Part shown: positions 19,421 through 52,485 of the stretch, piece by piece | Numbering within the stretch: position 1 is the stretch's first letter | How the letters are laid out: the number at the start of each line of letters is the position of its first letter | Notes under the pieces: generated by a model | Databases searched by the model: none | Seen by the model: only the letters and a program-made list of their open reading frames with translations | What the model was told of the DNA's origin: nothing | Made by a program: the position numbers and the translations under genes | From: a virus | Taxonomy: Duplodnaviria; Caudoviricetes | Reading direction: 5' to 3' (one strand) | Length of the DNA: 52,535 nt | Virus record (IMG/VR): IMGVR_UViG_3300047667_000935 | Span: 1 to 52,535 of that record

Positions 19421-19765
19421 ATGGACGATAAATTAGCAGACGCACTTGATTTTAGTAACTATATGATTACACTTGACAATCAAAAAAGATTACTAAAAGA
19501 ACAATACAACAACGACATTATTTATTATCACAATGGCGGACAATTTACGCTAACTTACTCATTAATTAGCTTTTGTGCAACAATGACAATGACTGGGCAG
19601 CTTTCGTCGGTGTTAATCGATGACAATTCAACTCCGATACATATTGATCATCTACAGGAATTTGCAAATAACACACTGACAGCATACACTAAAGCAGGCA
19701 ACAAGTATTTAACAGAATTTTCTAAGTTAAAAAATAACCGCACAGTCGAAGGTATTATTGATTAA
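19421..19765 (+). CDS. Hypothetical protein, 114 aa
   Basis: ORF with SD and promoter; TAATG overlap with the next gene. Confidence 0.75.
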   Translation: MDDKLADALDFSNYMITLDNQKRLLKEQYNNDIIYYHNGGQFTLTYSLISFCATMTMTGQLSSVLIDDNSTPIHIDHLQEFANNTLTAYTKAGNKYLTEFSKLKNNRTVEGIID

Positions 19766-20607
19766 TGTCAAAAGGCGCCCTCCTAATAGCACGTAACAAC
19801 AGCGAAATTGACTATATTAAACAAGCTGTCTTTTGTGCAAACAGAATTAAAAAATATCAAGGAATCCCTGTAAGCATTATTACAGATTCAGTTGCCTACC
19901 TTGAGAAAATATATCCTGATCATCCTTTTGACAAAGTAATCAATGCAGATGTATCCAGTACTGATACATATAGAAAGTATCATGACGGTTCGTGGACTAG
20001 GAAAAGTTTACAGTTTAAAAACACTGACCGAAGCACTGCATACAACCTCACTCCGTACGACGAAACAATATTATTAGATACTGACTTTATTGTTGCAAAC
20101 GATGTACTAAATAGATGTTTTGATCAAGAACATAATTTGTTGATGTACAGCAACAATGCATTTGAGTTTTCTGGTTGGAGAGACTTGTCTGAGTTTAAAT
20201 TTATAAGTGATACTGGCCCGCATTTCTATTGGGCAACTTGTGTGTTCTTTAGAAAGACTAATCCAAACAAAATATTTTTTAATTTAGTTAGTCATATAAA
20301 CAAAAACTGGCACCATTACCGACATATGTACCAAATTACATCAGGTGTGTTTCGTAATGATTTTGCATTTAGCATCGCTGCTCACATAATGAACGGTCAC
20401 AGAGATGGAAATTTTGTTAAACCAATGCCGGGTACAAAATACTTTATCACAGACCGTGATTATGTTGAAGAAATTACAGATGATAAATTTATATTTTTAA
20501 TTGAAAAACAAGGAACTGCTGATTGTTTTGCAATTAAGTCAACTGGCAGTAACATTCATATTATGAACAAGTTTAGCCTTAATAGGATTATTGACAATGC
20601 CGATTAA
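19765..20607 (+). CDS. GT-A fold glycosyltransferase-like protein (GT8-like), 280 aa
   Basis: TPYDETILLDTDFIV DxD motif; RNDFAFS in the position of the GT8 DQ motif; C-terminal His motif. Confidence 0.65.
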   Translation: MSKGALLIARNNSEIDYIKQAVFCANRIKKYQGIPVSIITDSVAYLEKIYPDHPFDKVINADVSSTDTYRKYHDGSWTRKSLQFKNTDRSTAYNLTPYDETILLDTDFIVANDVLNRCFDQEHNLLMYSNNAFEFSGWRDLSEFKFISDTGPHFYWATCVFFRKTNPNKIFFNLVSHINKNWHHYRHMYQITSGVFRNDFAFSIAAHIMNGHRDGNFVKPMPGTKYFITDRDYVEEITDDKFIFLIEKQGTADCFAIKSTGSNIHIMNKFSLNRIIDNAD

Positions 20608-21424
20608 TTTTACATTACTAGCACAAAACAGCTCAGATGATTATATTAAACAAGCATACTTGTGTGCTCTTAGTATACGAGCAACTAACCCGGGTTCTAA
20701 AATAGCACTAATAACAAACGACGAATGCAAATATGATATCTTTGATGACGTAATTAAAATTCCGTGGGGCGACGCAGCAGAAAACTCGGAATGGAAAATT
20801 GAAAATCGTTGGAAAATATACCACACTACTCCTTATAATAAAACAATTGTATTGGATACCGATATGCTGGTGCTAGATAATATTGAGCATTGGTGGAATG
20901 CTATGCAAGACAAGAAAGTGTTTTACACAACCAATGTATTAACATACCGGGGCAAGCCACTTACTAGCACACATTATAGGAAGTCATTTATACAGAACAA
21001 TCTTCCAAGTTTGTACAGCGGATTTCATTATTTTGAGAAAGGCGATGATGCGCATTTATTTTATCAATGGCTCGAACTTGTTATGAAAAACTGGGAAGCT
21101 TTTTATGAACAGCATGCAACTGGGAAAACCATCCAGGCATTTCCAAGTGTGGACGTAAGTGCAGCTATTGTTACTAAAATACTAGGATGGGAAAAAATTG
21201 TTACTGATGAAAAAAGTTACCCAAATTTTGTTCACATGAAAGCTCATGCACAGGATTGGAAATTGCCAAATAATTCGTGGATTGATAATGTTAATATATC
21301 CTTTAACAAGTCTCTTAATTTGAAAATTGGAAATTATAGCCAGCAGGGCATCTTTCATTATACTGAAAAAAACTTTGCAACTAACACAATAATAAAAATT
21401 TATGAAGAATACTTAGGAATTTAA
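20597..21424 (+). CDS. GT-A fold glycosyltransferase-like protein (GT8-like), paralogue of the upstream gene
   Basis: TPYNKTIVLDTDMLV DxD motif, shared DYIKQA N-terminal motif, FVHMK; ATG 20597 preferred over TTG 20591 from AGGA spacing. Confidence 0.65.
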   Translation: MPINFTLLAQNSSDDYIKQAYLCALSIRATNPGSKIALITNDECKYDIFDDVIKIPWGDAAENSEWKIENRWKIYHTTPYNKTIVLDTDMLVLDNIEHWWNAMQDKKVFYTTNVLTYRGKPLTSTHYRKSFIQNNLPSLYSGFHYFEKGDDAHLFYQWLELVMKNWEAFYEQHATGKTIQAFPSVDVSAAIVTKILGWEKIVTDEKSYPNFVHMKAHAQDWKLPNNSWIDNVNISFNKSLNLKIGNYSQQGIFHYTEKNFATNTIIKIYEEYLGI

Positions 21425-22012
21425 ATGGAAGATTTAATCTACATACCCACAACTAGATTTGTATACTTTGACGATTCCGGAAGTATATTAAGTATTAGCA
21501 ACTCCAAGAGCGAAAATGGAAATTTTATTGAAGTGGACTATACTCAAGTTGAAAATTTAGTTAGCGGAAAAGAACAATTACACCAGTATTATATAACATT
21601 TGACACTACTATTAAGACTTACGTGCTAAAACATCAACTTACCGACAACATTGGTGATAGTATCAATCATCAGTTGCATTATATTAATCGTACAAGTAGT
21701 GAATTAATTCCAGACCTAACGATAACTCAACATATTTCTAAAAACGAGTGGGTAGTAACTTTAGCCAATTCTGTTAGAAAAAACTTTAGTGGAAAAAATA
21801 TTTCTGTTAATTTATCGTTGATGTTTAGCGTTACTGGATACAACGAGGTGCAATCTTTAGAAAGAGTGATCATTATTGAATTATCTAAATTAATATCAAA
21901 AGAATGTGTTAAAATTCCATTTACTAGTCAAATCGAGTCAAGTGAATCTGCATTAAGCGTATATACTATTAAGCAACTCGAATCATATCATCACAGGGTA
22001 ATTAATGACTAA
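21425..22012 (+). CDS. Hypothetical protein, 195 aa
   Basis: ORF abutting neighbours, AGGA SD; no motif recognised. Confidence 0.7.
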   Translation: MEDLIYIPTTRFVYFDDSGSILSISNSKSENGNFIEVDYTQVENLVSGKEQLHQYYITFDTTIKTYVLKHQLTDNIGDSINHQLHYINRTSSELIPDLTITQHISKNEWVVTLANSVRKNFSGKNISVNLSLMFSVTGYNEVQSLERVIIIELSKLISKECVKIPFTSQIESSESALSVYTIKQLESYHHRVIND

Positions 22013-22934
22013 CAAATTTAAAATATTAGACCACGACATTATCTACTTGTCATATGACGAGCCAAATGCAGAAAAAAATTATGCAGATTTGTGTAAAAAA
22101 ATTCCCTGGGCAAAAAGAGTACACGGTGTCGAAGGATCTGACGCAGCACATAAAGCTTGCGCAGCGTTAAGTGAAACTGATAGATTTGTTACAGTTGATG
22201 CTGACAATATAGTCAATACTGAATTTTTAACAAAGGAGTTTGATATAGATGCACACAAAGATTTAGATCAATGTGTGATTAGTTGGACAGCTAAAAATCA
22301 TATTAACGGTTTAACGTATGGAAACGGCGGCCTCAAATGCTGGCCCAAGGAGTATGTGCTCGGCATGCGCACACACGAAAATGCGCCAGCTGATAATCCG
22401 CATGCACAAGTCGACTTTTGTTGGGACATCGAATACATACAAATGAACGGCTGCTACAGTGAAATTTTTAACAACGAAAGTCCTCAACAAGCTTGGCGCG
22501 CCGGATTTAGAGAAGGTGTTAAAATGGCACTCGATCGTGGTGTAAAACCAACGCGAGAAGCATTTCAGAAGAATCATTGGAAAAATCTACACAGACTTTA
22601 CATATGGTTAATGGTTGGCGCAGATGTAAAGAACGGCTTGTGGGCAATCTATGGCGCAAGAGAAGGATTATATAATACCATGTGTACTGATTGGGATTAT
22701 ATACAAGTTCGCGACTTTGAATATCTAAATAATTACTGGGACAGATCTCCAAGCCAGTGCAATGAACAACAGTTGATGACTTACATACAATCAATGGGTG
22801 TAATGTTAATAGACGAGCTAGAGCTACCAATTGCAACAGATCCGTTTGATGCAGACCAGAGCAAGTTTTTTAAAACAGTATACCAAAATCCTGCTCGAAT
22901 AGCCGGACAACAATTTGTAGATAGAGAGACTTAA
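22005..22934 (+). CDS. GT-A-like (glycosyltransferase-like) protein, 309 aa
   Basis: DIIYLSYDEPNA...AHKACA...FVTVDADN DxD motif; homologous to the C-terminal domain of 23497..27249. Confidence 0.6.
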   Translation: MTNKFKILDHDIIYLSYDEPNAEKNYADLCKKIPWAKRVHGVEGSDAAHKACAALSETDRFVTVDADNIVNTEFLTKEFDIDAHKDLDQCVISWTAKNHINGLTYGNGGLKCWPKEYVLGMRTHENAPADNPHAQVDFCWDIEYIQMNGCYSEIFNNESPQQAWRAGFREGVKMALDRGVKPTREAFQKNHWKNLHRLYIWLMVGADVKNGLWAIYGAREGLYNTMCTDWDYIQVRDFEYLNNYWDRSPSQCNEQQLMTYIQSMGVMLIDELELPIATDPFDADQSKFFKTVYQNPARIAGQQFVDRET

Positions 22935-22943
22935 TATATTTCG

Positions 22944-23483
22944 ATGAGACTTGAATATGAAATTTCTCCAATCGGCCAACCGTTCCTTGACTTGGAATCA
23001 GTAAAAGAAAATATTTCAAAGTTTTTAGACAACCATGTGCAAGATGATAGTAACATTTTTAATATACTATTCACCGGACACGAAGCTACAGAATGGCCTG
23101 ACTTTTTGTTGTTATGCAAGTATCTCAAAGAGACTTATCTGTGTACGTTGGAAATTAATACAACTTCTGCTCCAGGAGTAATATGGTGGTCTGCTGCTGC
23201 AAGAGTATTGGATACAATTACTATTAGTGTATATCATGAAACTTTAAAAAAAGTAAAAACACGCAAGCTAGCTGATTATTTGTTTGATTTAGAAATCAAC
23301 ATAACCATTGATGTATTTATAGATCCCTTAGAATTTGAAAAATGTACCAATATTGTAGATTATTTAAAAGAAGGTCAGCGTAATTGGATTATTGTAGCAA
23401 AGCCGATATTAACCAACAATGAATTTATATATGACGAAAAACAACGAGCATATTTTGACAATCCGACTAAACAACCTATTTAA
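22944..23483 (+). CDS. Degenerate radical SAM-like protein lacking CxxxCxxC, 179 aa
   Basis: LFTGHEAT resembles SGGEPT; INTTS...WW...ITISVYHE...VAKPI parallels MTSNCS..WF...ITASLHTE...TLKPM of 43829..44938. Confidence 0.5.
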   Translation: MRLEYEISPIGQPFLDLESVKENISKFLDNHVQDDSNIFNILFTGHEATEWPDFLLLCKYLKETYLCTLEINTTSAPGVIWWSAAARVLDTITISVYHETLKKVKTRKLADYLFDLEINITIDVFIDPLEFEKCTNIVDYLKEGQRNWIIVAKPILTNNEFIYDEKQRAYFDNPTKQPI

Positions 23484-23496
23484 GGAATAACCGACT

Positions 23497-26400
23497 ATGT
23501 TTGATATAATTATTATACAACCAAATTTTCTTACCGATACAAGTCACCCTGGCATTGTACAACGTTTCCCTTTTGCCAAGCATGCTCACTCGGTTACCGA
23601 GGCACAGCAACAATCGTTAACAGAGTTCTTTTGGATAGTGCCCAGCGATGTTATTGTTAACGACACGTTTGACTTTGATTATGTACCCGACAGTGGGAGC
23701 CAGGATTATATACATGTATTTAAAAACGGCAACGAGCTATACGACGGAATTGCACTTATTCCAAAAACTGCTATATTAACTGCTGATAACATACAAATAA
23801 GATTTTCTCATAATACAAAAAACGTCGACATTGTTGCGTCAACTCCTTGTCCATACGACATATTTAATATTGATACATTTGAAGAATACACATATGCATT
23901 GGAAAATAGTACAACTGAAATGTTCTGGATGAGCACTTCTTCTATTGACATTGATTTATCCGTGGTAAATAATTTTTACATACCGCATACTGATATACAT
24001 TCTCGTAATAAATCTCATGCATTCTTACATTGCATTGCAGATACTCGGAATTATAACGGAATATTCCTGTGCAGTAAAAATACACCTCTTTCTAAAAGAG
24101 AAGTAACATACAGATTTCCAGTTAATCGAATAGAACACGATATAGTTGCATCTACGCCCAAGCCTTATGATGTATTTTACATCAACACCTATGCAGAATA
24201 CACTCAAGCATTGGAAAACAGCACTACTGAAATGTTTTTTGTTGTGCCGGGTGATGTAGTAGTTGCAGATGAATTCAAGTTTGACATAAATTTTACTTTT
24301 GACAACATCTATGACAGAAACATAAATCACGTGTATCTAAACGGCACTGAATATTCAGGCATAGTATTATACAGCAAAGCATCTAAAATTACAAAAACAG
24401 AATTCATCAACAAAGATATTGCTAATAAAAAGCAAGTTTCGATAGTTGCATCTACGCCCAAGCCGTATGATGTATTTTACATCAACACCTATGAAGAATA
24501 CACTCGAGCGTTTAAAACTAGCACCACTGAAATGTTCTTTGTTGTGCCCGACGATGTGGTAGTTGCCAATGAATTCAAGTTTGACATAAATTTTACTTTT
24601 GACAACATCTATGACAGAAACATAAATCATGTATATTTAAACGACATTGAATATTCAGGCATAGTATTATACAGCAAAGCATGTAAAATTACAAAAAAAG
24701 AATTCATCAACAAAGATATTGCCAATAAAAAACAAGTTGCAATAGTTGCATCTACACCCAGGCCATATGATGTATTTTACATCAACACCTATGCAGAATA
24801 CACTCAAGCATTGGAAAACAGCACCACTGAAATGTTCTTTGTTGTGCCCGACGATGTGGTAGTTGCAGATGAATTCAAGTTTGACATACATTTTACATTC
24901 GACAACATCTACGACAGAAACATAAATCATGTGTATCTAAATGGAACTGAATATTCAGGCATAATGTTGTGTAGTAAAAATACACCTCTTTCTAAAAGAG
25001 AAGTAACATACAGATTTCCAGTTAATCGAATAGAACATGATATAGTTGCATCTACACCCAGGCCATATGATGTATTTTACATCAACACCTATGAAGAATA
25101 CGCTCAAGCGTTTAAAACTAGCACCACTGAAATGTTCTTTGTTGTGCCCGACGATGTGGTAGTTGCAGATGAATTCAAGTTTGACATACATTTTACATTC
25201 GACAACATCTACGACAGAAACATAAATCATGTATATTTAAATGGAACTGTGTACAATGGCATAATGTTGTGTAGTAAAGCATCTAAAATTACAAAAACAG
25301 AATTCATCAACAAAGATATTGCCAATAAAAAACAAGTTGCAATAGTTGCATCTACGCCCAAGCCTTATGATGTATTTTACATCAACACCTATGCAGAATA
25401 CACTCAAGCATTGGAAAACAGCACAACTGAAATGTTTTTTGTTGTGCCAGGGGATGTAGTAGTTGCAGATGAATTCAAGTTTGACATAAATTTTACTTTT
25501 GACAACATCTATGACAGAAACATAAATCATGTGTATTTAAACGACACTGAATATTCAGGCATAATGTTGTGTAGTAAAGCATCTAAAATTACAAAAAAAG
25601 AATTCGTTAACAAAGACATTAAAAATAAAAAGCAAGTTGCAGTGGTAGCATCCATTCCTAGGCCATATGATGTATTTTACATCAACACCTATGAAGAATA
25701 TACTCAAGCATTGGAAAACAGCACAACTGAAATGTTTTTTGTTGTGCCCGACGATGTGGTAGTTGCCAATGAATTCAAGTTTGACATAAATTTTACATTT
25801 GACAACATCTATGACAGAAACATAAATCACGTGTATCTAAACGGCACTGAATATTCAGGCATAATGTTGTGCAGTAAAAATACACCTCTTTCTAAAAGAG
25901 AAGTAGCATACAGATTTCCAGTTAATCGAATAGAACACGATATAGTTGCATCTACACCCAAACTGTATGATGTATTTTACATCAATACCTATGCAGAATA
26001 CACTCAAGCGTTTAAAACTAGCACCACCGAAATGTTTTTTGTTGTGCCGGGTGATGTAATAGTTGCCAATGAATTCAAGTTTGACATACATTTTACATTC
26101 GACAACATCTACGACAGAAACATAAATCATGTATATTTAAACGACACTGAATATTCAGGCATAATGCTGTGCAGTAAAGCATCTAAAATTACAAAAAAAG
26201 AATTCATCAACAAAGACATTAAAAATAAAAAGCAAGTTGCAATAGTTGCATCTACACCCAAGCCGTATGATGTATTTTACATCAACACCTATGCAGAATA
26301 CACTCAAGCATTGAAAACTAGCACTACTGAAATGTTCTTTGTTGTGCCCAACGAAGTAGTAGTTGCAGATGAATTCAAGTTTGACGTACATTTTACATTC

Positions 26401-27472: not shown

Positions 27473-27497
27473 TCCGTTTGCTGCACAGTTTACATAA
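27444..27497 (+). pseudogene. 3'-terminal remnant of a radical SAM gene paralogous to 31934..33013
   Basis: Encodes CCTKCSPEFDPFAAQFT* versus CSTKCGIEFDPFGEQFK* at 32960-33013; 42/54 nt and 11/17 aa identical by hand count. Confidence 0.85.
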
Positions 27498-27505
27498 GTA
27501 TTAAT

Positions 27506-29324: not shown

Positions 29325-29362
29325 ATAGATATATTGTATAACTTACAACTTGGAGAACTATA

Positions 29363-45508: not shown

Positions 45509-45510
45509 CT

Positions 45511-46569: not shown

Positions 46570-47771
46570 AGCAAGATTTAGTTATATTTATAAACTGTGC
46601 CAGAGACCATTATGATGTTTGCAAAGAAGTTAGAAACACTTTTCCTAATGTAGTTATATCAATAGTGTGGACCGACGAAAACACAAAGAATTTAATTTAT
46701 AATTTACATAAAAGTGATACACACAGTTATAATTTTGAAGAAGTTTATACAGAAGATCTTATACGGCACTATATTAAAAATTACAATATACTAGCAGTTG
46801 TGCCTGGCGGCGACGACAGTGTTGATTTAGCATTAAGGCTACAAAATAGACTAACCCCTAACACGTCAAATTCTCTACAGACAATAGGAATCATTGCAGA
46901 CAAGAATTGCTATTTAGATTTGTTAAATTCTCACGGAATAGTAAAAACTAAACAATATAAACTAGATAGTATAGAATCATTTCCGGTTGTTATAAAACCT
47001 AAATTTAGTAAGGGCGGCAGCGAAAATGTCTGGATAGTTGAAAACACCGATCAGATTCCTAACAATATTAATTATGACGACTTTGTAGCACAAGAATATA
47101 TTAACGGAACAGAATACACTATTGATATGGCGTCAATAAATGGCGAGCATCATTTACTGTTAGCATCAAAGTACGATAAATTTAAAGATGAATTATGGCA
47201 ATATAAAGAAAGTATTGTCGATTATCCCAAAGAATGTTACTTAATTCGAGATATTTTTGAATATCTATCTCAGTGTTTAGATGCCCTTGATTGGAAATTT
47301 GGAATTACTTGTGCGCAAGTAATTGTCGGAAAGTCAATAGACTTGGTTGAAATTAATTTTAGAAAACATGGACATATAAATGACAATGCTGTTAAAAAAT
47401 CCACAGGTATAAAATTATCTACACATATGTCTAATATATACTTGACTCCGGAGGTCTTTAAAAACAGAATTCCTATGTATGATTACTATCAACCTTATGA
47501 TAGATTTTGGGTTAACATAGAAAAAGAGACTTATATAGAAACCCTTGATTGGAGTAAAGTAGAAACTTTAGATAGTTATGTTGGTAAAATAGATCATTCT
47601 ATACTCTTTAGTTTTCCTGGAACAATAAAGAAGTCAACAAGTATGCTTTCAAGTTTTGGAATGGTTTCGATGTCTCATCATAATAAAGATATTTACAAAA
47701 AAGATGTTGACACTTATTTTGAATGGTGGAAAAAGGCCACAAACAATTTACAGGAGCAATTGCAACCATAA
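46566..47771 (+). CDS. ATP-grasp domain protein, 401 aa
   Basis: ADK, FPVVIKP..SKGGSENV, VAQEYINGTEYTID, LVEINFR. Confidence 0.85.
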   Translation: MKQDLVIFINCARDHYDVCKEVRNTFPNVVISIVWTDENTKNLIYNLHKSDTHSYNFEEVYTEDLIRHYIKNYNILAVVPGGDDSVDLALRLQNRLTPNTSNSLQTIGIIADKNCYLDLLNSHGIVKTKQYKLDSIESFPVVIKPKFSKGGSENVWIVENTDQIPNNINYDDFVAQEYINGTEYTIDMASINGEHHLLLASKYDKFKDELWQYKESIVDYPKECYLIRDIFEYLSQCLDALDWKFGITCAQVIVGKSIDLVEINFRKHGHINDNAVKKSTGIKLSTHMSNIYLTPEVFKNRIPMYDYYQPYDRFWVNIEKETYIETLDWSKVETLDSYVGKIDHSILFSFPGTIKKSTSMLSSFGMVSMSHHNKDIYKKDVDTYFEWWKKATNNLQEQLQP

Positions 47772-47774
47772 ATA
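47768..47774 (+). promoter_or_regulatory. Putative late promoter (ATAAATA)
   Basis: Overlaps the ATP-grasp stop codon; 5 nt before the in-frame ATG at 47780. Confidence 0.55.
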
Positions 47775-47779
47775 CTGTT

Positions 47780-48223
47780 ATGCTATTATTTAATGATTTT
47801 AAAAAAGCATTCTTAAGTTGGAGTGAAACGTTAATTGAATCTAAACAGGAATCGGGCTCTCCGATTTGTCCATACGCACGCAAAGCAAGACTGCAAAATA
47901 AAATACAGTTTATAGATGCTCGTGAATCTTTATTAGAACTTAATAATTTTGAACGAGATACTTTTGAAATTGGCATTGCATGGCTAGGTGACATAGATAA
48001 CATTGCACCTGTAGAAAAATTTTGCGAGGAATCTATGATTGCTAATCCTGATCTACTGTATTTTACCAGTACAAGAAGCAGTGGACACTTTGCAAAGAAC
48101 TTTACAGATTGTGTGTTTATTCAATTAAAAGATGATATACTTACAAAACGCAAGCACTTAAAAAGTACTGGATATTATGATAATTGGCCAGAGAATTATT
48201 ATAACAAAATTATGGAAAGTTAA
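47780..48223 (+). CDS. Hypothetical protein with CPYA motif (DUF1415-like), 147 aa
   Basis: W...LIE......PICPYARKA and C-terminal GYYDNW; start moved from 47723 to remove a long overlap. Confidence 0.6.
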   Translation: MLLFNDFKKAFLSWSETLIESKQESGSPICPYARKARLQNKIQFIDARESLLELNNFERDTFEIGIAWLGDIDNIAPVEKFCEESMIANPDLLYFTSTRSSGHFAKNFTDCVFIQLKDDILTKRKHLKSTGYYDNWPENYYNKIMES

Positions 48224-48224
48224 T

Positions 48225-48851
48225 ATGACAACTACTAATCTTTTTTCAACACCTATAATGAAAAAAAATCTTAATTCGTTAAACTTAGACAAGTTCAGAG
48301 AGCGTATCATTACACTGATAGACACTGATGATTACGGAGATCATATATCTGTAAAGGGAATGGCTGCTGCAAAAGTTATTAATACGTTTGGCATTGAAAA
48401 AGCAATGCATTTGTGGCCCGAAACAGAGGAATTAGTAGAAAATGTTAACCAATCACTTAAAGAATACTGGAAAATTTTAAATTATCACCCTGCCCTAAAA
48501 CCGTTTATTAATGAAATGTGGGCAACAATATCTTTTAAAGAAGGGTATGTACCGAGTCACTTTCATGGACCATCGCCAATAAATGCAATATTCTACTTAG
48601 ATAAAACTGAATATGCTGGTAATTTAGTATTCCAGAATCCTTTAGAACTTGTATTAGGATCTCAACCGATAAACTTTCCGTTTGACGAATTTGCACATGT
48701 TGAAAATTTAACACAAGGAGACTTAATTTTGTTTCCTGGGTACATCAGGCATTCGACAGAAGTAAACTATGCTGATGGTTATAGAATTAGCATAGGAATG
48801 AACATAGGGTCAACTGGTAAGTATATTACATCTCAGTGGATTAATAAATGA
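48225..48851 (+). CDS. Putative 2OG-Fe(II) oxygenase (TIGR02466-like)
   Basis: LFSTPI, EMWA, SHFH, FYL, GNLVFQNP, GDLILFPGYIRH, RISIGMN; ATG 48225 follows the upstream stop. Confidence 0.8.
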   Translation: MTTTNLFSTPIMKKNLNSLNLDKFRERIITLIDTDDYGDHISVKGMAAAKVINTFGIEKAMHLWPETEELVENVNQSLKEYWKILNYHPALKPFINEMWATISFKEGYVPSHFHGPSPINAIFYLDKTEYAGNLVFQNPLELVLGSQPINFPFDEFAHVENLTQGDLILFPGYIRHSTEVNYADGYRISIGMNIGSTGKYITSQWINK

Positions 48852-49870
48852 TATACACCGAATGGGATAAACTTACAGAAGTAATTGTAGGATCGGCATA
48901 TAACTTAGAGTCTTTGAATCAATTCGACGATAATGAGTTTGTCGACGGAATGAGCAAGATTCTTACCGAGACGGAAGAAGATTTTCAAAAGCTAACAATG
49001 CTTTTTCAAAGCCATGGGGTCGATGTGCATCGACCCAAGCAGTTACCTTTATTAGAAGAAAAGACCAGAAATTGGTCCTCGCTATTTCCGTACCCTGCAA
49101 TATGCCCTAGGGACTTTCATATTGCATACGGTAGTCAAATACTTTCGACTATAGGCGGCGATTGTAATAGGTACACTGAAAGTGATTATTTTTTAGAAAT
49201 AATGTTAGAAAAATATGCACAAGGCAGAAATTATATTAGCATGCCTAAGCCGTTACTGAGTAATGATTATTGGGAATACGAAAAGTTAGAAGGACAGATA
49301 CTGTTTCATGCTGCAAATATTATCAAGTGCGGCGACGCCCTGTTACATACACAACCTTATGCGCCAGGGCAACACGGCAGAGGAACAAAGGCTGGCCTAG
49401 AATGGATAAAACGTAATATCGGATATGATGTTAAATGGATAGAAATTCCAAGAACGGGGCATATTGATGGGAAAATTGCACTATTAAAACCTGGCCTATT
49501 GCTTTGTTGGGACTCGGCTGCAATTCCTGAAGAATTAAAAAGTTGGGATTACATTAAAATAGAAAGAACCCCTTTGCCAAATTATTTTAATGAAATCAAA
49601 ATAAGACATTTCTACAAGGATAAAGTTACAAATTGGTTAAATCACTGGATAGGATATGTAGACGAAACTGTGTTTGATCTTAATGTTATAAGTATAGACC
49701 AGAACACAGTTATAACAAATGGATACGATCCTAAAATAGAACGTACTCTTAAAAAGCACGGCATTGAAATGATACCTTTTGATTTTAGACACAAATATTT
49801 TTGGGATAGCGGGTTACATTGTGTAACACTTGATTTAAGTAGAGAAGGTGAAAAACAGACATATGTATAA
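48848..49870 (+). CDS. Amidinotransferase family protein, copy 2, 340 aa
   Basis: TEWDKLTEVIVG, CPRD, HIDG, GLHCVTLD; collinear with copy 1. Confidence 0.85.
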   Translation: MIYTEWDKLTEVIVGSAYNLESLNQFDDNEFVDGMSKILTETEEDFQKLTMLFQSHGVDVHRPKQLPLLEEKTRNWSSLFPYPAICPRDFHIAYGSQILSTIGGDCNRYTESDYFLEIMLEKYAQGRNYISMPKPLLSNDYWEYEKLEGQILFHAANIIKCGDALLHTQPYAPGQHGRGTKAGLEWIKRNIGYDVKWIEIPRTGHIDGKIALLKPGLLLCWDSAAIPEELKSWDYIKIERTPLPNYFNEIKIRHFYKDKVTNWLNHWIGYVDETVFDLNVISIDQNTVITNGYDPKIERTLKKHGIEMIPFDFRHKYFWDSGLHCVTLDLSREGEKQTYV

Positions 49871-50582
49871 TATTATTATGAATACACCCGAAGCATTAGT
49901 GATAGATGACTTTTTGCCTCAAGACATCTGGAATAGAATATGGAATCAAGTTCAGATTGATAAATGGACTCAAACAGGAGCCGATGATAAGTTTTGGCAT
50001 TATACCGATGGCGCCAACTATAAAAATCAAAAAAGATGGCTAACAGAGGGGCCGTTTAACGATAATAGCGATTTATGGTTTGATCATTTTACAAAATTTT
50101 TAGATACTTGTCCCGAAGCTAAACCTTTTGCAAAGGACTATATTGAAATAGCTATGCGATGTCATACTTATCCAGCAGGAAGTAAAAATCCCTGGCACAA
50201 CGATTTAGGTTTTACTACCTACACATATTACTTGCATAAACATTGGCAAATTAATTGGGATAGTACATTGCTAATAGTTCCACTTGATATTATAGATTAC
50301 CAACAATTGTTAACTTTAGAAAACGGTTCCGTGCATCATGACGGTTACACTAGCACAAACAGCCCTATGGAAATGTTTCAACAAAAAGAAAAATATCAGT
50401 CAATTATTGATCATGGCATTGGCTTTTTTGTAAGTCCTAAGCCTAATAGATTAATATTAATAAACAAAAAAGTAGTTCATGGTATAACAGCAGTTGATAA
50501 AGATGCTGGAGAAAATATGAGGGTGTCTCTTACTGGCATGATTATGGAAAGTGATTGGAAAGAAACAAATGATCTATTTTAA
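49863..50582 (+). CDS. 2OG-Fe(II) oxygenase (prolyl-hydroxylase-like)
   Basis: VIDDFLP, WHND, YYLHKHW..NW, PKPNRLI, HGI, RVSL. Confidence 0.8.
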   Translation: MYNIIMNTPEALVIDDFLPQDIWNRIWNQVQIDKWTQTGADDKFWHYTDGANYKNQKRWLTEGPFNDNSDLWFDHFTKFLDTCPEAKPFAKDYIEIAMRCHTYPAGSKNPWHNDLGFTTYTYYLHKHWQINWDSTLLIVPLDIIDYQQLLTLENGSVHHDGYTSTNSPMEMFQQKEKYQSIIDHGIGFFVSPKPNRLILINKKVVHGITAVDKDAGENMRVSLTGMIMESDWKETNDLF

Positions 50583-51132
50583 AGAATTTCCTAAACTAGA
50601 ATGGTCTCCTAAATTAGGACAGCAATATCTTTTAGATAACTTGCCAGATCCGTTTAATACTAATTTACCAAAAGTAGATGACATAATGGAAGCTAATAAC
50701 GGCTGGTTTCATATAGGCCCGGGAGGATTACATATGTACTACTGTGGCGCAACTGATCCTAAATTTCAACATTTTAAGCCTATTACAGATAAACTAAGTA
50801 TTATGCCCGAGTATGCGGCATTTATTAAAAGTGAAGCAGGCACAGGGCCTATACATGTTGATATTGAGTCTAGAGTAAGTGCATTAAACTTTCCAGTATA
50901 CGGAGAGTGGGACAACAGCTATACTAAGTTTTGGGATTCAGAAGAAGGAAATTATGAAGTAAGCGAGAGATGGTATCCTAGTACAACCTGCGGCGCCCTG
51001 TTTAGAGCTACAGAATGGCATCAAGTTGTAAACAAAAATTCAGGAGCAAGAATTGTGTTAAGCTTTCACTGGAATGCAAGTTATAGCTTTGAATATCTTT
51101 GTGATAATTTACTTAGGAAAGATTTACTATGA
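50569..51132 (+). CDS. Putative 2OG-Fe(II)/cupin oxygenase
   Basis: IHVD...ALNFPV...WHQVVN...RIVLS. Confidence 0.65.
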   Translation: MIYFKEFPKLEWSPKLGQQYLLDNLPDPFNTNLPKVDDIMEANNGWFHIGPGGLHMYYCGATDPKFQHFKPITDKLSIMPEYAAFIKSEAGTGPIHVDIESRVSALNFPVYGEWDNSYTKFWDSEEGNYEVSERWYPSTTCGALFRATEWHQVVNKNSGARIVLSFHWNASYSFEYLCDNLLRKDLL

Positions 51133-51968
51133 GAATTAAATTAATCACAGATGTGATAGTGCCGTTTAGGCCACCTGAGTTCCACAATGACATAATTAAT
51201 TTTCCTATGGAGCAATATTTTTATTTTGATCAAGATTGGGATATAAACAAGCGATTTGAAGCAATAGACGATTTCTATAGCACGTTTGAATCCTGGGTCA
51301 ACATTACACTACCGGCATGGGAGAAGTATGCTGTAAACGGCAGTACAGAAGCTATAACACAGTGTTTAATAGCGTTATCTCATACAACTAAAAAACTTGC
51401 AATGGTAGAAAACGAATATAGATGGTATCCATTTATTGCAAGCAAGTATGGCATTGATGTGGTATGGGTTAACGACATTAATGACTTAACTAATGACTGT
51501 GTATTTGTAACTAGTGTACCGTTTTGCCGTGATGGCAAAGTACACGATTTACAACAACAATTACTAGACAAATGCCATAAAGAAGGAATTGAATGTTGGC
51601 TAGATTGTGCATACTACGGAGCAAGTAAACCAGTTGAGTTTAAAATTCCTAAAAGTACAACTAATATCTTTTTTAGCTTTTCTAAGAATTTCGGATTAGC
51701 ACTAAATCGACTTGGTCTTTGGTATGCCAAAGATTACATTGCAGACAAGGCTCTGTTAAATGATGTTGCATACTTGCCTATTGGTAATATGGCGTTGGTA
51801 GCAATGCTAATGAAAAAATATCCTAATGATTATCTTTGGAATAATTATAGAGATGTACAATTACAGTGTACAGATTCTCCTACTGATTTAATTTTCATGG
51901 GCAGCAACGGAGAATGCCTTAGTGGTAAGATGACTGCGATTGTAAGGGAAAATTATCAAGGTCTTTAA
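51129..51968 (+). CDS. PLP-dependent enzyme (class I/II aminotransferase-like, short), 279 aa
   Basis: NGSTEAI, LDCAY, SFSKNFGL...RLG with the Schiff-base Lys. Confidence 0.75.
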   Translation: MRIKLITDVIVPFRPPEFHNDIINFPMEQYFYFDQDWDINKRFEAIDDFYSTFESWVNITLPAWEKYAVNGSTEAITQCLIALSHTTKKLAMVENEYRWYPFIASKYGIDVVWVNDINDLTNDCVFVTSVPFCRDGKVHDLQQQLLDKCHKEGIECWLDCAYYGASKPVEFKIPKSTTNIFFSFSKNFGLALNRLGLWYAKDYIADKALLNDVAYLPIGNMALVAMLMKKYPNDYLWNNYRDVQLQCTDSPTDLIFMGSNGECLSGKMTAIVRENYQGL

Positions 51969-52485
51969 ATTTAGTCCATGCTATATTTTGCCAGCAAGTA
52001 CTATTAGGTTTTGGATCGTTACAAACTAAATATCGATCTGTTTCGTATTTCCATGTAGAATCTAAAAAGTTATTAGCATCTTTTGCAAATCTCTTACAGA
52101 ATCGATGTGTATTATATTGCCTACTAATAAATGCAAAATTGAAATGTTCTTTAGCAAATTCTATTTGACTTGCTAACATAGTTAATGTAGTCTCGGGAAT
52201 ACATGGCGATGTGCTTCTTTCTCGCAATAAAGGACTAACCATAAGCCTGTTTAAAACACGACATCCTCCCTGAAACATGTCTCTAGAAATAATAGTACTT
52301 ACTTCAAACGGTTGATTATTTTTGTAAATTATACTAATAAATACCGGCCCGTCTTTAAAAAAGTTTTCTGTAGTATAGTTTTCTGATAATTTGTCATGTT
52401 TCATTTGTAACATTAAGGATTCTACATCATCTTTGATTTGATAGTATTGATCTATATGTACATTTTTAAAGCGATATTCTTTCAT
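51919..52485 (-). CDS. Hypothetical protein, possibly GNAT-fold acyltransferase, 188 aa
   Basis: RVLNRLMVSPLLR resembles GNAT motif A, followed by helix-AKEH-strand; only convincing full-length minus-strand gene. Confidence 0.55.
   Translation of the reverse strand: MKEYRFKNVHIDQYYQIKDDVESLMLQMKHDKLSENYTTENFFKDGPVFISIIYKNNQPFEVSTIISRDMFQGGCRVLNRLMVSPLLRERSTSPCIPETTLTMLASQIEFAKEHFNFAFISRQYNTHRFCKRFAKDANNFLDSTWKYETDRYLVCNDPKPNSTCWQNIAWTKFKDLDNFPLQSQSSYH

Follow-up and report, generated by a model that had tools for sequence, protein, structure and literature searches.

In a jumbo myophage, a phage-borne cluster of soluble enzymes was found directly 3′ of the genes for baseplate and fibres; judged from its gene content, it most likely forms a cytoplasmic glycoconjugate pathway with an unusual, decorated glycan as product. 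The window (the whole 52,535-nucleotide stretch analysed) is a fragment of an uncultivated, aquatic phage (CheckV: 14% complete). The island (19421-51968, 32,548 bp; Table 1) comprises 35 plus-strand ORFs, with 20 of 34 junctions overlapping, six showing gaps of 0-20 bp and four gaps of >50 bp, in agreement with a first-pass annotation that described about 35 co-oriented genes straight after the tail genes. Pfam matches (E<=0.01) were obtained for 15 of 36 island proteins and none for the other 21; with further family searches included, about half have no family assigned. TM-like segments were absent from 35 of the 36 proteins (Kyte-Doolittle, 19-residue window, >=1.6), and the one marginal hydrophobic segment (1.68) lies inside a Rossmann-like glycine motif. 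This is consistent with the earlier statement that no flippase, polymerase or exporter was recognised.

Table 1. Features of the window and the evidence for each.
Position	Strand	Feature	Evidence
1-11373	+	giant virion (baseplate-associated) protein	open at window 5′ end; 3790 aa visible
11394-12005	+	conserved 203-aa structural protein	matches in 93 phage records
12008-14083, 14083-15921, 15975-17426	+	three fibre-like proteins	N-terminal domain common to all
17456-18343, 18376-19362	+	two small fibre-like paralogues	Ser+Thr 27-30%
19368-19396	+	sigma-70-like promoter TTGACA-17-TATTAT	in 58-bp gap before first island gene
19421-19765	+	first island gene, 114 aa, core	no Pfam or PHROG match
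19765-20607	+	GT8-like glycosyltransferase a, core	paralogue of 20591-21424
20591-21424	+	GT8-like glycosyltransferase b, core	family profile matches glycogenin (GT8)
21425-22012	+	195-aa fast-evolving protein, core by position	no family match
22005-22934	+	GT-A fold glycosyltransferase	most conserved gene of island
22944-23483	+	179-aa protein	no family match; homologues in 26/82 loci
23497-27249	+	1250-aa protein	~100-aa tandem repeats, then C-terminal GT-A domain
24142-26571	+	tandem array of a 300-bp repeat, 8.1 copies	Tandem Repeats Finder: 84% matches, score 3349
27227-27472	+	81-aa conserved small protein	homologues in 18/82 loci, 68-79% identity
27506-28732	+	408-aa protein, possible GT10-like (lead only)	Atlas Glyco_transf_10 0.78-0.79
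28725-29324	+	199-aa protein	no Pfam match even at E 5
29363-30589	+	UDP-sugar/GDP-mannose 6-dehydrogenase family	UDPG_MGDP_dh_N E 3e-17, UDPG_MGDP_dh E 4e-16
30677-31321	+	214-aa protein, methyltransferase-like unconfirmed	no Pfam or PDB match
31318-31941	+	207-aa protein	no family match; homologues in 0/82 loci
31934-33013	+	radical SAM, semi-core	Pfam Radical_SAM E 2.4e-5; CxxxCxxC at residue 18
33047-33547	+	166-aa protein	only DUF2529, E 0.068
33526-34254	+	CMP-sugar-type cytidylyltransferase	Pfam CTP_transf_3 E 1.2e-13
34254-35180	+	308-aa protein	no family match; homologues in 0/82 loci
35196-36035	+	radical SAM with C-terminal SPASM	SPASM E 4.6e-15, Radical_SAM E 5.9e-8
36089-36751	+	220-aa protein	no family match
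36881-38152	+	AsnB-like glutamine amidotransferase / PP-loop enzyme	GATase_7 E 1e-13, Asn_synthase E 2.7e-11
38174-38893	+	239-aa protein	no family match
38993-40417, 40414-41628, 41603-42682, 42669-43832	+	four N-terminal-twitch radical SAM paralogues	NF033640
43829-44938	+	radical SAM, kernel member	Pfam Radical_SAM E 1.8e-15
44948-45508	+	Asp/Arg beta-hydroxylase-like cupin oxygenase, first gene of distal cassette	Asp_Arg_Hydrox E 2e-10
45511-46569	+	amidinotransferase 1	PDB sequence search: StrB1 E 2.4e-19, full length
46566-47771	+	ATP-grasp ligase	Pfam ATP-grasp_3 E 3.9e-9
47723-48223	+	166-aa protein	no family match; kept with cassette in L003, L004
48177-48851	+	2OG-Fe(II) oxygenase	Pfam 2OG-FeII_Oxy_5 E 1.5e-12
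48848-49870	+	amidinotransferase 2	52% identity to 45511-46569
49848-50582	+	possible 2OG-Fe(II) oxygenase (weak)	2OG-FeII_Oxy_3 E 0.01; no PDB match
50551-51132	+	193-aa protein	no family match
51129-51968	+	weak candidate fold-I PLP aminotransferase; final plus-strand gene	Aminotran_1_2 E 0.0066
51919-52485	-	188-aa ORF, convergent, ends island block	no family match

The virion genes upstream relate the fragment to known jumbo phages. The giant protein shares 28% identity (tblastn, E 2e-128) with a 4555-aa ‘virion structural protein’ of Phosso, whose gene is placed after baseplate wedge genes, and its residues 2-3521 share 42.5% with the complete relative G001. Best matches of the 203-aa protein are Phosso (52%), Atu_ph07 (50%) and Rak2-like jumbo phages (~45%), with a structural or baseplate annotation in some of the matching records. 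The N-termini of the three fibre-like proteins all match one single Phosso gene, and 12008-14083 contains a Pfam Collar (tail) domain (E 2e-16). Homologues of these three occur in 60-64 of 82 related loci, those of the small fibre-like paralogues in 72-73 and in RsoM2USA; the gene immediately 5′ of the island is always of the small type.

G001 (381,886 bp, CheckV 100% complete) has the same layout as the window, and its island (35 ORFs, 10 Pfam families) holds 13 radical SAM genes and no transporter or polymerase family. Since the layout recurs in this complete genome and in the cultured Ralstonia phage RsoM2USA, a cellular polysaccharide locus, which the first-pass annotation had named as an alternative, was rejected. 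Modification of DNA, also named there, found no support in the relatives.

The island opens with a conserved core of a small ORF, two GT8-like genes, a gene of unnamed family, a GT-A gene and an N-twitch radical SAM gene; at least 253 IMG/VR contigs carry this core at the same position. The order of fibre genes, 114-aa ORF, both GT8-like genes, 195-aa gene, GT-A and N-twitch radical SAM was stable across the loci examined and is kept in RsoM2USA at 35-46% identity. The 114-aa gene has homologues in 76 of the 82 loci and in RsoM2USA, with an Atlas lead only (DUF4376 at 0.88); the 195-aa protein has them in 66 (24-67% identity). Each GT8-like protein has homologues in 79 loci and two invariant aspartates (D105 and D107 in a, D89 and D91 in b). 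Compared with the family of b, a gave an hhalign probability of 99.2 (E 1e-19). The family profile of b matched 19 glycogenin chains in its N-terminal 100 residues (best E 7e-5), and the own profile of a had no match among PDB sequences. The GT-A protein, with at least 253 IMG/VR relatives, shows a mean column identity of 78% and an invariant D65xD67 (DxD). With its AF2 model (mean pLDDT 75.8), Foldseek found SunS/ThuS (E 2e-5) and the PBCV-1 capsid glycosyltransferase (E 3.5e-4), and VIA gave Z 10.7 to B4GALNT1 and 10.3 to STIV A197. A second GT-A domain (residues 1024-1201 of the 1250-aa protein; 36% identity to the first, E 3e-29) stands alone in RsoM2USA, L003 and L094. In total, four of the about five GT-like proteins reported earlier are supported, two GT8-like and two GT-A, whereas the fifth, the 408-aa protein, is a weak candidate with its GT10 lead and no Pfam, PHROG or PDB sequence match.

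The earlier count of seven radical SAM proteins was reproduced, all seven carrying CxxxCxxC. The semi-core enzyme has orthologues with 66-88% identity in relatives; in bacterial L094 the value is 48%. For the kernel member, G001 and G002 hold orthologues at 80-87%, and those of bacterial L094 and L095 are at 63%. The N-twitch paralogues scored 420, 286, 204 and 402 bits against NF033640 (cut-off 170), with C8/C26/C76/C79 and C123/C127/C130 invariant; the folds nearest to the AF2 model (pLDDT 90.1) are SkfB, BlsE, CteB, SuiB, viperin and MoaA.

For sugar activation, the UDP-sugar dehydrogenase (homologues in 24 of 82 loci) and the cytidylyltransferase hold by Pfam, whereas the supposed SIS isomerase (33047-33547) received no Pfam, NCBIfam or PDB support. 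Among the tailoring enzymes, the AsnB-like protein, the ATP-grasp and both amidinotransferases were recovered. Amidinotransferase 1 further matches HsvA (3.9e-18), SxtG (6.6e-14) and AGAT (1.7e-10) in the PDB, and amidinotransferase 2 shares 45% identity with a gene of the G005 island, which is bacterial, and 25-26% with proteins annotated as amidinotransferases in Campylobacter phages and in cyanophage S-SCSM2R. Two of four proposed oxygenases stood (Asp_Arg_Hydrox, a family that the G001 island also has and that of G005 has twice, and 2OG-FeII_Oxy_5), a third is weak and no tool returned the fourth. The PLP enzyme is likewise weak, with HisC matching the same region at E 0.71; the Pfam scores of both weak genes were treated as below the cut-off. 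Nor did any tool return the proposed methyltransferase (30677-31321), sulfotransferase (31318-31941), either SGNH protein (28725-29324, 36089-36751) or the GNAT; about half of the individual family calls were left unconfirmed. The 199-aa protein matched one PHROG of unannotated function (E 1e-4). The 214-aa protein is a recurrent kernel partner with homologues in RsoM2USA, G001 and bacterial L095 and L102, and the 81-aa gene lies in relatives between this gene and the semi-core radical SAM gene. The convergent ORF accompanies the distal cassette in relatives; L003 and L004 each have it at the corresponding place (79% identity).

The promoter ahead of the island is the top-scoring site (11/12) in the range scanned (17000-36999). 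Of 42 distinct sequences taken from upstream of homologues, 35 contain TTGAC-N17-19-TAnnnT ahead of the island, against 26 out of 2000 random 90-mers; in the regions upstream of fibre genes it was found in 0/59, 0/76 and 0/74. With a conserved promoter of its own that the fibre genes lack, the island would be a separate, possibly early transcription unit and not simply part of a late fibre operon.

The earlier label of an undescribed system is overstated, as the architecture as such is already in print for other phages in the available parts of two papers. In pelagimyophages and cyanomyophages, hypervariable regions linked to the fibres hold GT8 transferases, UDP-glucose 6-dehydrogenase and cassettes of radical SAM genes (PMC7029224). 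The architecture of this ‘host recognition cluster’, whose function is putative, parallels that of the island, which may by analogy, and quite tentatively, be its jumbo-phage counterpart. A further parallel of putative function is the module of five radical SAM proteins and an amidinotransferase in Campylobacter phages CP220 and CPt10 (PMC2853527). In CP220 it sits between baseplate and tail-fibre genes, beside two genes annotated in the record as nucleotide-diphospho-sugar transferases. Phosso has a cupin and four radical SAM-like genes immediately 3′ of its fibre gene.

As a modular accessory operon with its own sigma-70-type promoter, the island would act wholly inside the infected cell, in its cytoplasm. 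The dehydrogenase and the cytidylyltransferase would supply activated uronic and CMP-linked sugars; radical SAM enzymes, oxygenases, amidotransferase and amidinotransferases may oxidise, epimerise or deoxygenate these sugars and equip them with amino and amidino/guanidino groups. The core transferases could then place a short glycan straight onto a soluble acceptor, with no lipid carrier, flippase or polymerase. This acceptor might be the phage's own fibre proteins, in particular the Ser/Thr-rich small ones immediately upstream, an assignment that we consider possible yet doubtful. The conserved position beside the fibre genes and the analogous fibre- or baseplate-adjacent arrangements in Phosso and CP220 argue for it. 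The core GT-A (median 71%) is also conserved far above the neighbouring fibre proteins (medians 37-52%), a pattern more in keeping with a conserved acceptor, universal or supplied by the phage, than with one specific to the host. Weaker points in its favour are the peptide/protein glycosyltransferases SunS/ThuS and the PBCV-1 capsid enzyme among the GT-A neighbours, and an amidinotransferase and a prolyl-hydroxylase-like protein detected in the S-SCSM2R virion proteome (available part of PMC12801897). However, the island's promoter does not favour the virion, and the small fibre protein's C-terminal domain recurs in PA5oct-like phages, where the transferases are missing. The predicted N-twitch fold neighbours leave sugar and peptide substrates unseparated, about half of the island proteins are without family, and the available part of the RsoM2USA paper identifies only 10 gel bands and leaves the core module unannotated (PMC8504454). 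Modification of the host envelope is considered somewhat less likely than that of the virion fibres; the analogous pelagimyophage region was read in print as modifying the host O-chain (PMC7029224, available part). The earlier interpretation is partly supported, namely for a soluble, phage-borne cluster of nucleotide-sugar, glycosyltransferase and tailoring enzymes beside the fibre genes. If the fibres are glycosylated, their sugar coat would be lineage-specific and set by the cassettes in each island.

Bacterial counterparts bear on the same question. The GT-A/radical SAM kernel was also found in Bdellovibrionia-type MAG chromosomes between housekeeping genes (GT-A 37-41% identity, a second GT-A, radical SAMs 48-63%), and no copy of the phage 203-aa structural protein was found in these genomes. 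Bacterial G005 combines ~14 N-twitch radical SAMs, the amidinotransferase, two Asp/Arg hydroxylases and a UDP-sugar pyrophosphorylase in an array adjoining dnaG and rpoD-type genes. These bacterial sets indicate, at the level of gene content, that such chemistry can exist apart from phage fibres, which speaks against fibres as acceptor. The ten ORFs flanking the L094 kernel include no polysaccharide export gene, and a cytoplasmic acceptor would fit there too, in modest support of the fibre assignment.

Pfam matches on the repeats of the 1250-aa protein were dismissed as artefacts, no single stretch being significant. Within the underlying array, minus-strand ORFs of 87-101 aa recur at the same period as the repeats.

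The record is linear and was rated 14% complete by CheckV, which corresponds to a genome of about 350–380 kb; the GC content ranges from 0.32 to 0.43 and no tRNA genes were found. Its first 19.4 kb encode virion parts, the giant ORF first, then the gene of a 203-aa structural protein and a set of five fibre-like genes, and are followed by the island (see table). The giant ORF matches a 4555-aa virion protein of Sinorhizobium phage Phosso. For the 203-aa protein 93 phage records match, headed by Phosso (52%) and Agrobacterium phage Atu_ph07 (50%) and continued by Rak2-like jumbo phages (~45%); the Phosso homologue comes after two baseplate wedge genes and the 4555-aa protein. The cultured relatives nearest to the lineage are jumbo phages of 340–490 kb. 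From the Phosso-type virion gene order and these matches we conclude that the window represents part of the genome of an uncultivated jumbo myophage and not a cellular polysaccharide locus, in line with the first-pass annotation, which had taken the cluster for a phage one. The fibre-like protein starting at 15975 shows a weak C-terminal match to Peptidase_G2 and intramolecular chaperones (E 0.0028) and aligns there with the C-terminus of the fibre gene of Phosso, a hint at a fibre chaperone domain that cleaves itself. When the Phosso locus was compared with all 43 window proteins (tblastn), only the giant and the 203-aa proteins matched, apart from the N-termini of the fibres. The radical SAM cluster of Phosso was therefore rejected as a homologue of the island and is regarded as analogous only. 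A megablast search with positions 19421–44000 against 50,697 phage records gave no match.

Features of the window with their positions (nt) and strand
Feature	Positions	Strand	Remarks
Giant ORF	1–11373	+	5'-open, 3790 aa seen, no start; 42.5% identity to the metagenomic relative G001 over residues 2–3521
Three large fibre-like proteins			common N-terminus; tail Collar domain in one (E 2e-16)
Two small fibre-like paralogues			Ser/Thr-rich (27–30%)
Fibre-like protein with Peptidase_G2 match	15975–17426
Sigma-70-type promoter match	19368–19396		TTGACA-17-TATTAT, in the intergenic 58 bp that precede the first island gene
Island	19421–51968	+	35 ORFs in 32,548 bp
Core, first ORF	19421–19765	+	114 aa
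Core, GT8-like a	19765–20607	+
Core, GT8-like b	20591–21424	+
Core, fourth ORF	21425–22012	+	195 aa
Core, GT-A	22005–22934	+
ORFs opposite the repeat of the 1250-aa gene	24025–26430	-	eight ORFs of 87–101 aa, recurring at the 300-bp repeat period
Recurrent kernel partner	30677–31321	+	214 aa
Small ORF	36738–36878		46 aa, ATG start
Largest intergenic gap of the island	36751–36881		129 bp
Four consecutive N-twitch radical SAM genes	38993–43832	+	NF033640 bits: 38993, 420.3; 40414, 285.5; 41603, 204.0; 42669, 401.6
Distal cassette	44948–52485		hydroxylase, two amidinotransferases, ATP-grasp, oxygenases, possible aminotransferase
Closing ORF	51919–52485	-	convergent; no family match

The island is a real, well-delimited feature. 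Its ORFs overlap at 20 of the 34 junctions and are 0–20 bp apart at 6 of them, confirming the earlier description of about 35 co-oriented, mostly overlapping genes after the tail genes. The small ORF starting at 36738 is located inside the largest intergenic gap. With Pfam (E ≤ 0.01), 15 of the 36 proteins, counting the closing ORF, gave a match and 21 did not. A UDP-sugar/GDP-mannose dehydrogenase, a CTP_transf_3 cytidylyltransferase, an AsnB-like amidotransferase, an Asp/Arg-hydroxylase-like cupin and a 2OG-Fe(II) oxygenase are supported in this way, as are the ATP-grasp enzyme and all seven radical SAM proteins announced before, each with a CxxxCxxC motif. Overall, about half of the family inventory of the first-pass annotation was borne out. 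Besides the Pfam-supported enzymes, two amidinotransferases stood up to closer comparison (see below). The SIS isomerase as well as the methyl-, sulfo-, SGNH and GNAT families were unsupported in every family or sequence search of island proteins, and a third oxygenase (gene 49848) and the PLP enzyme (51129) gave matches below threshold. PDB sequence searches with the proteins 27506, 33047, 30677, 51129 and 49848 returned nothing significant. For ten uncharacterised island proteins PHROGs gave two weak matches, both to families of unknown function, and Pfam at E up to 5 yielded sub-threshold leads only. The proteins 34254 and 38174 were compared as potential paralogues and rejected as such.

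Roughly five proteins had been described as glycosyltransferase-like. Four of these are supported, two GT8-like and two GT-A, whereas for the fifth (27506) a weak GT10 lead was all that was obtained. Both GT8-like proteins are without a Pfam match at E 0.01, and their DxD motif is invariant in the family alignments. The profile of the GT8-like b family matches glycogenin (GT8) with E 7e-5, a similarity confined to the N-terminal 100 residues. The GT8-like a family is its paralogue (hhalign probability 99.2), and its own profile found nothing significant among PDB sequences. The core GT-A protein likewise has no match by sequence when its profile is searched against the PDB; its model (AF2, mean pLDDT 75.8) shows a GT-A fold (Foldseek probability 1.0, E 2e-5 to SunS/ThuS), and the PBCV-1 capsid glycosyltransferase is found with E 3.5e-4 at 12% identity. 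With VIA, Z scores of 10.7 to B4GALNT1 (rmsd 3.0, 135 residues) and 10.3 to STIV A197 were obtained; since nucleotidyltransferases of GT-A-like fold (MobA, IspD) also reach Z ~9, transferase activity is putative. The D65xD67 motif is invariant in 24 sequences. The second GT-A domain forms the C-terminus of a 1250-aa protein, where it is 36% identical to the core GT-A; the remainder of this protein is encoded by a 300-bp tandem repeat of 8.1 copies. The minus-strand ORFs opposite the repeat look like by-products of it and not like genes. The repeat number varies among relatives, whose matches start at residues 613–815 of the window protein.

Parts of a Wzx/Wzy- or ABC-type locus (initiating transferase, flippase, polymerase, exporter) are absent from the Pfam matches of the window and from the island of G001. 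Together with the finding that none of the 36 island proteins contains a clear hydrophobic 19-mer, i.e. a convincing membrane segment, this agrees with the earlier statement that no flippase, polymerase or exporter is present. Most likely, the island encodes a cytoplasmic glycoconjugate pathway. Activated sugars (UDP-uronic, CMP-linked) would feed a soluble pathway, the many tailoring enzymes of redox, amino and amidino type would modify them, and four or five transferases would act without lipid-carrier initiation, flipping, polymerisation or export. The interpretation given in the first-pass annotation, a modified glycan or other adduct on virion proteins or an altered host receptor, is plausible.

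No base-modifying entry enzyme was recognised in the window, as had been noted before, but this means little because the window covers only 14% of the genome. Campylobacter phages of the CP220 type have unusual DNA bases and carry an analogous module, and Ralstonia jumbo phage RsoM2USA contains a second, weak thymidylate-synthase-like gene (85 bits). These cases, as well as the ability of phage transferases to hypermodify DNA with glycans (Pyle 2024, cited in PMC12619734), would fit a pathway in which transferases and tailoring enzymes decorate modified phage bases and thereby evade restriction. We regard such a DNA hypermodification as highly improbable. The metagenomic relatives G001–G003 have one thymidylate synthase match of canonical strength each, which in G001 is a single strong match of 338 bits, as for a true ThyA. 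TGT/DpdA was found in none of four records, QueC is not above the cut-off in G001–G003, and a QueD-like gene (three of five records) lies far from the island, which itself is placed in the structural and not in the nucleotide-metabolism region. The weakly matching RsoM2USA gene (7739–8398 of that record; main thymidylate synthase match 242 bits) could encode a dNMP hydroxymethylase.

Of the core GT-A, at least 253 relatives are present in IMG/VR, of which the 80 kept are 69–87% identical. Among the 50,697 deposited phage records a tblastn search revealed a single one, in RsoM2USA (46%). Over 82 fetched loci the gene order is constant, with fibre genes, 114-aa ORF, GT8-like a, GT8-like b, 195-aa ORF, GT-A and, next to it, N-twitch radical SAM genes (NCBIfam NF033640), one to four in number, beyond which the content is variable. 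In this order the core genes were matched in 76, 79, 79, 66 and 82 of the loci and the N-twitch gene in 75; the 195-aa ORF is fast-evolving. The synteny comparison across related large phages, suggested as a check of the first reading, thus showed that core order and fibre adjacency are kept in the 82 loci and in RsoM2USA. Outside the core, content and order differ even where the core GT-A is 85% identical, and the island size ranges from ~8 kb in RsoM2USA over 23 kb in G002 and 32.5 kb in the window to ~36 kb in G001. G002, the closest large relative, has only some cassettes in common with the window. In G001 (381,886 bp, rated 100% complete) the island comprises 35 ORFs with 13 radical SAM proteins, eight of them over the NF033640 cut-off and one with a B12-binding domain. 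It also contains a UDP-sugar dehydrogenase, a DegT-type sugar aminotransferase and an Asp/Arg hydroxylase, and no transporter family occurs among its Pfam families. RsoM2USA carries a minimal module (ORFs 354–345) of small ORF, both GT8-like genes, an uncharacterised gene, GT-A and one N-twitch radical SAM gene, further a stand-alone second GT-A domain and a homologue of gene 30677, all annotated as hypothetical. The paper on this phage reports only 10 virion bands confirmed by mass spectrometry and gives the module no annotation (PMC8504454).

Regarding the acceptor, virion fibre proteins are our tentative suggestion. The position beside the fibre genes is kept from marine contigs to RsoM2USA, and analogous modules adjoin baseplate or fibre genes in CP220 and Phosso. 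The core is conserved beside divergent fibres, with a median identity of 71% for the core GT-A in comparison to 37–52% for the adjacent fibre proteins, and no export genes are found near the bacterial counterpart of the GT-A and radical SAM gene set, in the following called kernel.

The promoter match before the first island gene is the best of sigma-70 type in the region 17000–36999. Upstream of homologues of this gene the motif TTGAC-N17-19-TAnnnT was found in 35 of 42 distinct regions. In comparison, it occurs in 0/59, 0/76 and 0/74 regions upstream of the three large fibre genes, in 2/35 and 3/48 upstream of the two small ones and in 26 of 2000 random 90-mers of the same loci. The motif appears to be under selection, since the surrounding intergenic sequence is not conserved. 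With its own conserved promoter the island would form a separate transcription unit, which is probably transcribed by the host RNA polymerase. In 16 of 35 distinct relatives (loci L010–L084) the motif also occurs upstream of the core GT-A, within the 3'-terminal part of the gene ahead of it, suggesting an internal promoter in part of the lineage; at this place the window has no match to a stricter form of the motif. The T4 late-promoter motif TATAAATA was observed 8 times versus 9.1 expected and is thus not enriched. In the high-GC phage RsoM2USA the boundary gap between the fibre-like ORF355 and ORF354, with which the module starts (17297–17372 of the fetched locus L085), holds a stem-loop instead of a TTGAC-type motif. 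This perfect hairpin with an 8-bp stem is a possible terminator or processing site.

A conserved promoter apart from the fibre genes would permit early expression by the host RNA polymerase, and this would suit a remodelling of the host envelope. Modified nucleotide sugars and peripheral transferases would then feed the lipid-carrier pathway of the host and change its LPS O-chain or capsule, with the benefit of shutting out competing phages or of sparing the progeny a loss on debris. Many O-antigen transferases are devoid of membrane segments, so the lack of such segments in the island does not speak against this explanation. The fast turnover of cassettes between close relatives, as in O-antigen loci, and the homologous genes in bacterial chromosomes also fit, and a host-directed function is the published reading of analogous pelagimyophage and cyanophage regions (PMC7029224, PMC7824862), the GT8 family being rich in LPS transferases (PMC7029224). 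Overall, we consider envelope remodelling somewhat unlikely. Neither the window nor the Pfam families of the G001 island include an initiating phosphoglycosyl transferase, flippase, polymerase, ligase or exporter, and the bacterial kernel at locus L094 is without a polysaccharide locus in its 10 flanking ORFs. Marine and freshwater contigs share the core transferases and their order with a phage of Ralstonia, which is hard to fit with host-specific acceptors, and the strict adjacency to fibre genes is left unexplained.

A described counterpart is known from pelagimyophages and cyanomyophages as the host recognition cluster (HRC), a hypervariable region of 34–45 kb on average that lies in the structural module after the giant baseplate protein VrlC (Zaragoza-Solas et al. 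2020, PMC7029224). Besides the fibres it carries GT8 transferases, a UDP-glucose 6-dehydrogenase and cassettes of radical SAM genes, which vary among closely related phages; an Asp/Asn beta-hydroxylase is often present in HRC-bearing phages, and modification of the host O-chain was proposed as the role of the HRC (PMC7029224). Similar to the HRC, the island is hypervariable between related phages, is located in the structural module with fibre genes, and has GT8-like transferases, a UDP-sugar dehydrogenase and radical SAM cassettes. It also follows a giant baseplate-type ORF, a likeness that is positional (3790-aa ORF versus VrlC). The giant ORF of the window holds the place taken by VrlC in T4-like marine phages. 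In contrast, HRCs belong to T4-like (Tevenvirinae-type) genomes of 132–164 kb and are bounded by VrlC and gp14, whereas the island lineage has genomes of ~350–380 kb and is related to Atu_ph07, Phosso, Rak2 and RsoM2USA. The five-gene core, the own promoter, the N-twitch arrays (up to 8 plus 5 other radical SAM proteins per island) and the bacterial counterpart are not described for the HRC.

The proposal of an undescribed system does therefore not hold for the architecture, which is already in print for the HRC (PMC7029224) and for CP220/CPt10 (PMC2853527). In the main texts of the literature searched we did not find the five-gene core with its promoter, the N-twitch arrays, the bacterial kernel or such an island in the Rak2/Atu_ph07-related jumbo lineage or RsoM2USA. 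Fibre-linked sugar islands are among the largest unexplained gene blocks of abundant marine phages, and their usual reading, a change of the host O-antigen, is a proposal. The island adds testability by a small conserved core that is separable from variable cassettes, a conserved promoter defining the transcription unit, cultured carriers of the core (RsoM2USA) or of analogous modules (CP220, S-SCSM2R), and a bacterial counterpart of the kernel. If its product coats virions, this bears on host range, phage decay and phage recognition; if it remodels the host, on phage–phage competition in the sea.

The two amidinotransferases were missed by Pfam and NCBIfam at the thresholds used. The first one matches the inosamine-phosphate amidinotransferase StrB1 over its full length (residues 3–347, E 2.4e-19), with HsvA, SxtG and AGAT matching as well, and the second is its 52%-identical paralogue. 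Pairwise alignment shows an H-C pair near the C-terminus kept in both, the Cys of which may be the catalytic one. The distal cassette that contains them recurs as a block in two further contigs, L003 and L004 (45–85% identity), there beside a UDP-sugar dehydrogenase and a GT-A domain. These enzymes could also point to a soluble specialised metabolite, a guanidino- or amino-sugar or aminocyclitol-like compound comparable to aminoglycoside or nucleoside antibiotics, which would be glycosylated by the transferases and act on host or competitors. Besides the StrB1-like pair and the mobility of the cassette, the UDP-sugar dehydrogenase, the ATP-grasp ligase and the possible aminotransferase would suit such a product, as would BlsE, a structural neighbour of the twitch radical SAM enzyme that acts on a nucleoside glucuronate; the bacterial island has the same families and no exporter nearby. 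The likeness to StrB1 and BlsE, i.e. to aminoglycoside and nucleoside-antibiotic tailoring, is one of single enzymes and not of pathways, as neither an aminocyclitol synthase nor a kinase nor a resistance gene was recognised. Export or regulatory genes were not recognised either, four or five transferases and a core tied to fibre genes in at least 253 contigs would be unexpected for a diffusible product, and the gain for a lytic phage with a single short infection cycle is not evident. A metabolite is thus unlikely in our view.

Similar readings have been put forward for other phages. In cyanophage S-SCSM2R, trios of amidinotransferase, radical SAM and aminotransferase were termed 'antibiotic synthesis genes', and an amidinotransferase was found in the virion proteome (PMC12801897). 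In this phage we observed an amidinotransferase gene that adjoins GT2, radical SAM and sugar-type aminotransferase genes. For the cyanophages P-SSM2 and S-SSM6a, 'LPS' and sugar/amino-acid tailoring clusters were described, with superinfection exclusion or, for another cluster, a secondary metabolite as proposed roles (Iyer et al. 2021, PMC7824862). These clusters resemble the island in nucleotide-sugar enzymes, several transferase families, 2OG/cupin hydroxylases, methylases and the lack of dedicated export genes. They belong to another phage lineage, and neither radical SAM arrays nor an island-type core are reported for them; the phrase 'radical SAM' is absent from the main text of PMC7824862. 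In CP220 and CPt10, 10–12 genes form an interchangeable cluster that includes five radical SAM proteins and an amidinotransferase, putatively of glycine/inosamine type (Timms et al. 2010, PMC2853527). According to the CP220 annotation, two nucleotide-diphospho-sugar transferases adjoin this module, between baseplate (gp5/PAAR) and tail-fibre genes. The CP220 amidinotransferase is 26–29% identical to those of the window, and homologues of the core GT8-like and GT-A genes are lacking. The module resembles the island in composition and position and not by common descent as a whole. As N-twitch members the CP220 radical SAM proteins were rejected, with 0 of 7 over the cut-off. Glycosylation of virions is exemplified by the PBCV-1 capsid glycosyltransferase, a soluble viral GT-A enzyme acting in the cytoplasm with no lipid-linked machinery, to which the likeness of the island is at fold level only, and by mycobacteriophage capsid and tail glycans (Freeman 2023, cited in PMC12619734). 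Moraphages, which we considered as a candidate for the same lineage, have four core glycosyltransferase orthogroups and differ, by their description, from the window lineage in size (up to 307 kb) and in kinship to ERM sediment phages (PMC12619734).

Four of the seven radical SAM proteins are members of NF033640 over the full model (cut-off 170; bits in the table), and the other three, at 39–44 bits, are non-members. In an alignment of 28 sequences C123/C127/C130 and the N-terminal C8/C26/C76/C79 are invariant. Nearest folds to the N-twitch model (pLDDT 90.1) are SkfB, BlsE, CteB, SuiB, viperin, MoaA and anSME; BlsE, which decarboxylates a nucleoside glucuronate, is the second Foldseek match with E 1.7e-6 and rmsd 4.4 Å over 229 columns. 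As peptide maturases and sugar or nucleotide enzymes are interleaved among the top matches, the fold was rejected as a guide to the substrate. The Asp_Arg_Hydrox family, which is present in the island, is best known as a protein hydroxylase family. Taken with the nearest folds, which include anSME, an enzyme that modifies proteins, and SkfB, CteB and SuiB, which mature peptides, it could indicate a direct, non-glycan editing of fibre or other proteins, in which radical SAM, cupin and 2OG enzymes cross-link, epimerise and hydroxylate and the sugar genes are a separate add-on. A comparable case is Phosso, where cupin and radical SAM-like genes follow a fibre gene and no transferase was recognisable in the 10 proteins scanned. 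We hold such protein editing to be decidedly unlikely. In a non-systematic inspection neither a precursor peptide nor a leader-recognition (RRE) domain nor a protease became apparent, and the window proteins gave no Pfam match to RRE or PqqD. Moreover, arrays of N-twitch genes sit with UDP-sugar enzymes consistently, in phages (UDP-sugar dehydrogenase and DegT aminotransferase) and in a bacterium (UDP-sugar pyrophosphorylase), so sugar chemistry is favoured.

NF033640 is without assigned function, and a literature search for its name gave no paper whose title or opening lines of the abstract concern the family; N-twitch paralogues in tandem arrays of 4 to ~14, as present in phage islands and a Bdellovibrionia MAG, were likewise not found in the literature searched. 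One member has 4480 homologues at E ≤ 1e-10 in metagenome proteins. The island provides a context for the family, namely arrays accompanied by UDP-sugar enzymes, amidinotransferases and Asp/Arg-hydroxylase-like cupins. In Vibrio phages of the KVP40 group, 40 records contain one to five places similar to the N-twitch radical SAM protein (20–26% identity), annotated as moaA/nifB/pqqE family or radical SAM.

To search for bacterial homologues, species-representative genomes were scanned with one N-twitch protein, yielding 13 loci, all in MAG bins. One bin (G004) carries the phage 203-aa structural gene on small contigs and thus contains mis-binned phage DNA. The gene is absent from G005, the Bdellovibrionia MAG, and from G006, and usable bacterial context was taken from these two only. 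Within 30 kb of a 916,837-bp contig of G005 (C1:745000–775000; loci L102 and L103), ~14 N-twitch genes are found on both strands, 13 of the 47 ORFs scanned there having a Radical_SAM match. Neighbours are two Asp/Arg hydroxylases, a UDP-sugar pyrophosphorylase, a methyltransferase, a homologue of 30677 and an amidinotransferase 45% identical to that of the window, and the flanks contain primase (dnaG), sigma-70 (rpoD-like), enoyl-CoA hydratase and carboxyltransferase genes. The whole bin (4.5 Mb) has 33 matches to the NF033640 model. Five island genes, the core GT-A (41% identity), the second GT-A domain (44%), 38993 (59%), 31934 (48%) and 43829 (63%), have their homologues packed into a 6.6-kb cluster on a second G005 contig of 493,600 bp, between MoxR/DUF58, SppA, DedA-like, T2SSE ATPase and PHP-domain genes. 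The kernel is consequently also a bacterial gene set for which phage fibres are not required.

These findings allow a more far-reaching, rather unlikely idea, in which the conserved kernel (GT-As, N-twitch and two other radical SAM proteins), with its radical SAM genes expanded to as many as 13 per array, would be a new, lipid-carrier-free combinatorial glycan editor. Each twitch paralogue would rewrite a different sugar or glycan position on a soluble acceptor, giving giant aquatic phages a lineage-specific exotic fibre coat (amidino/guanidino, uronic and deoxy sugars) and modifying an own protein in Bdellovibrionia-type bacteria. Contigs of the loci L089–L099, with 53–91% identity to a radical SAM gene of the window, are assigned to MAGs of Crocinitomicaceae, Arcticimaribacter, Neisseriaceae, Planctomycetota, Dojkabacteria and Bdellovibrionia. 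For the Crocinitomicaceae bin at least, the phage structural gene on small contigs reveals mis-binned phage DNA.
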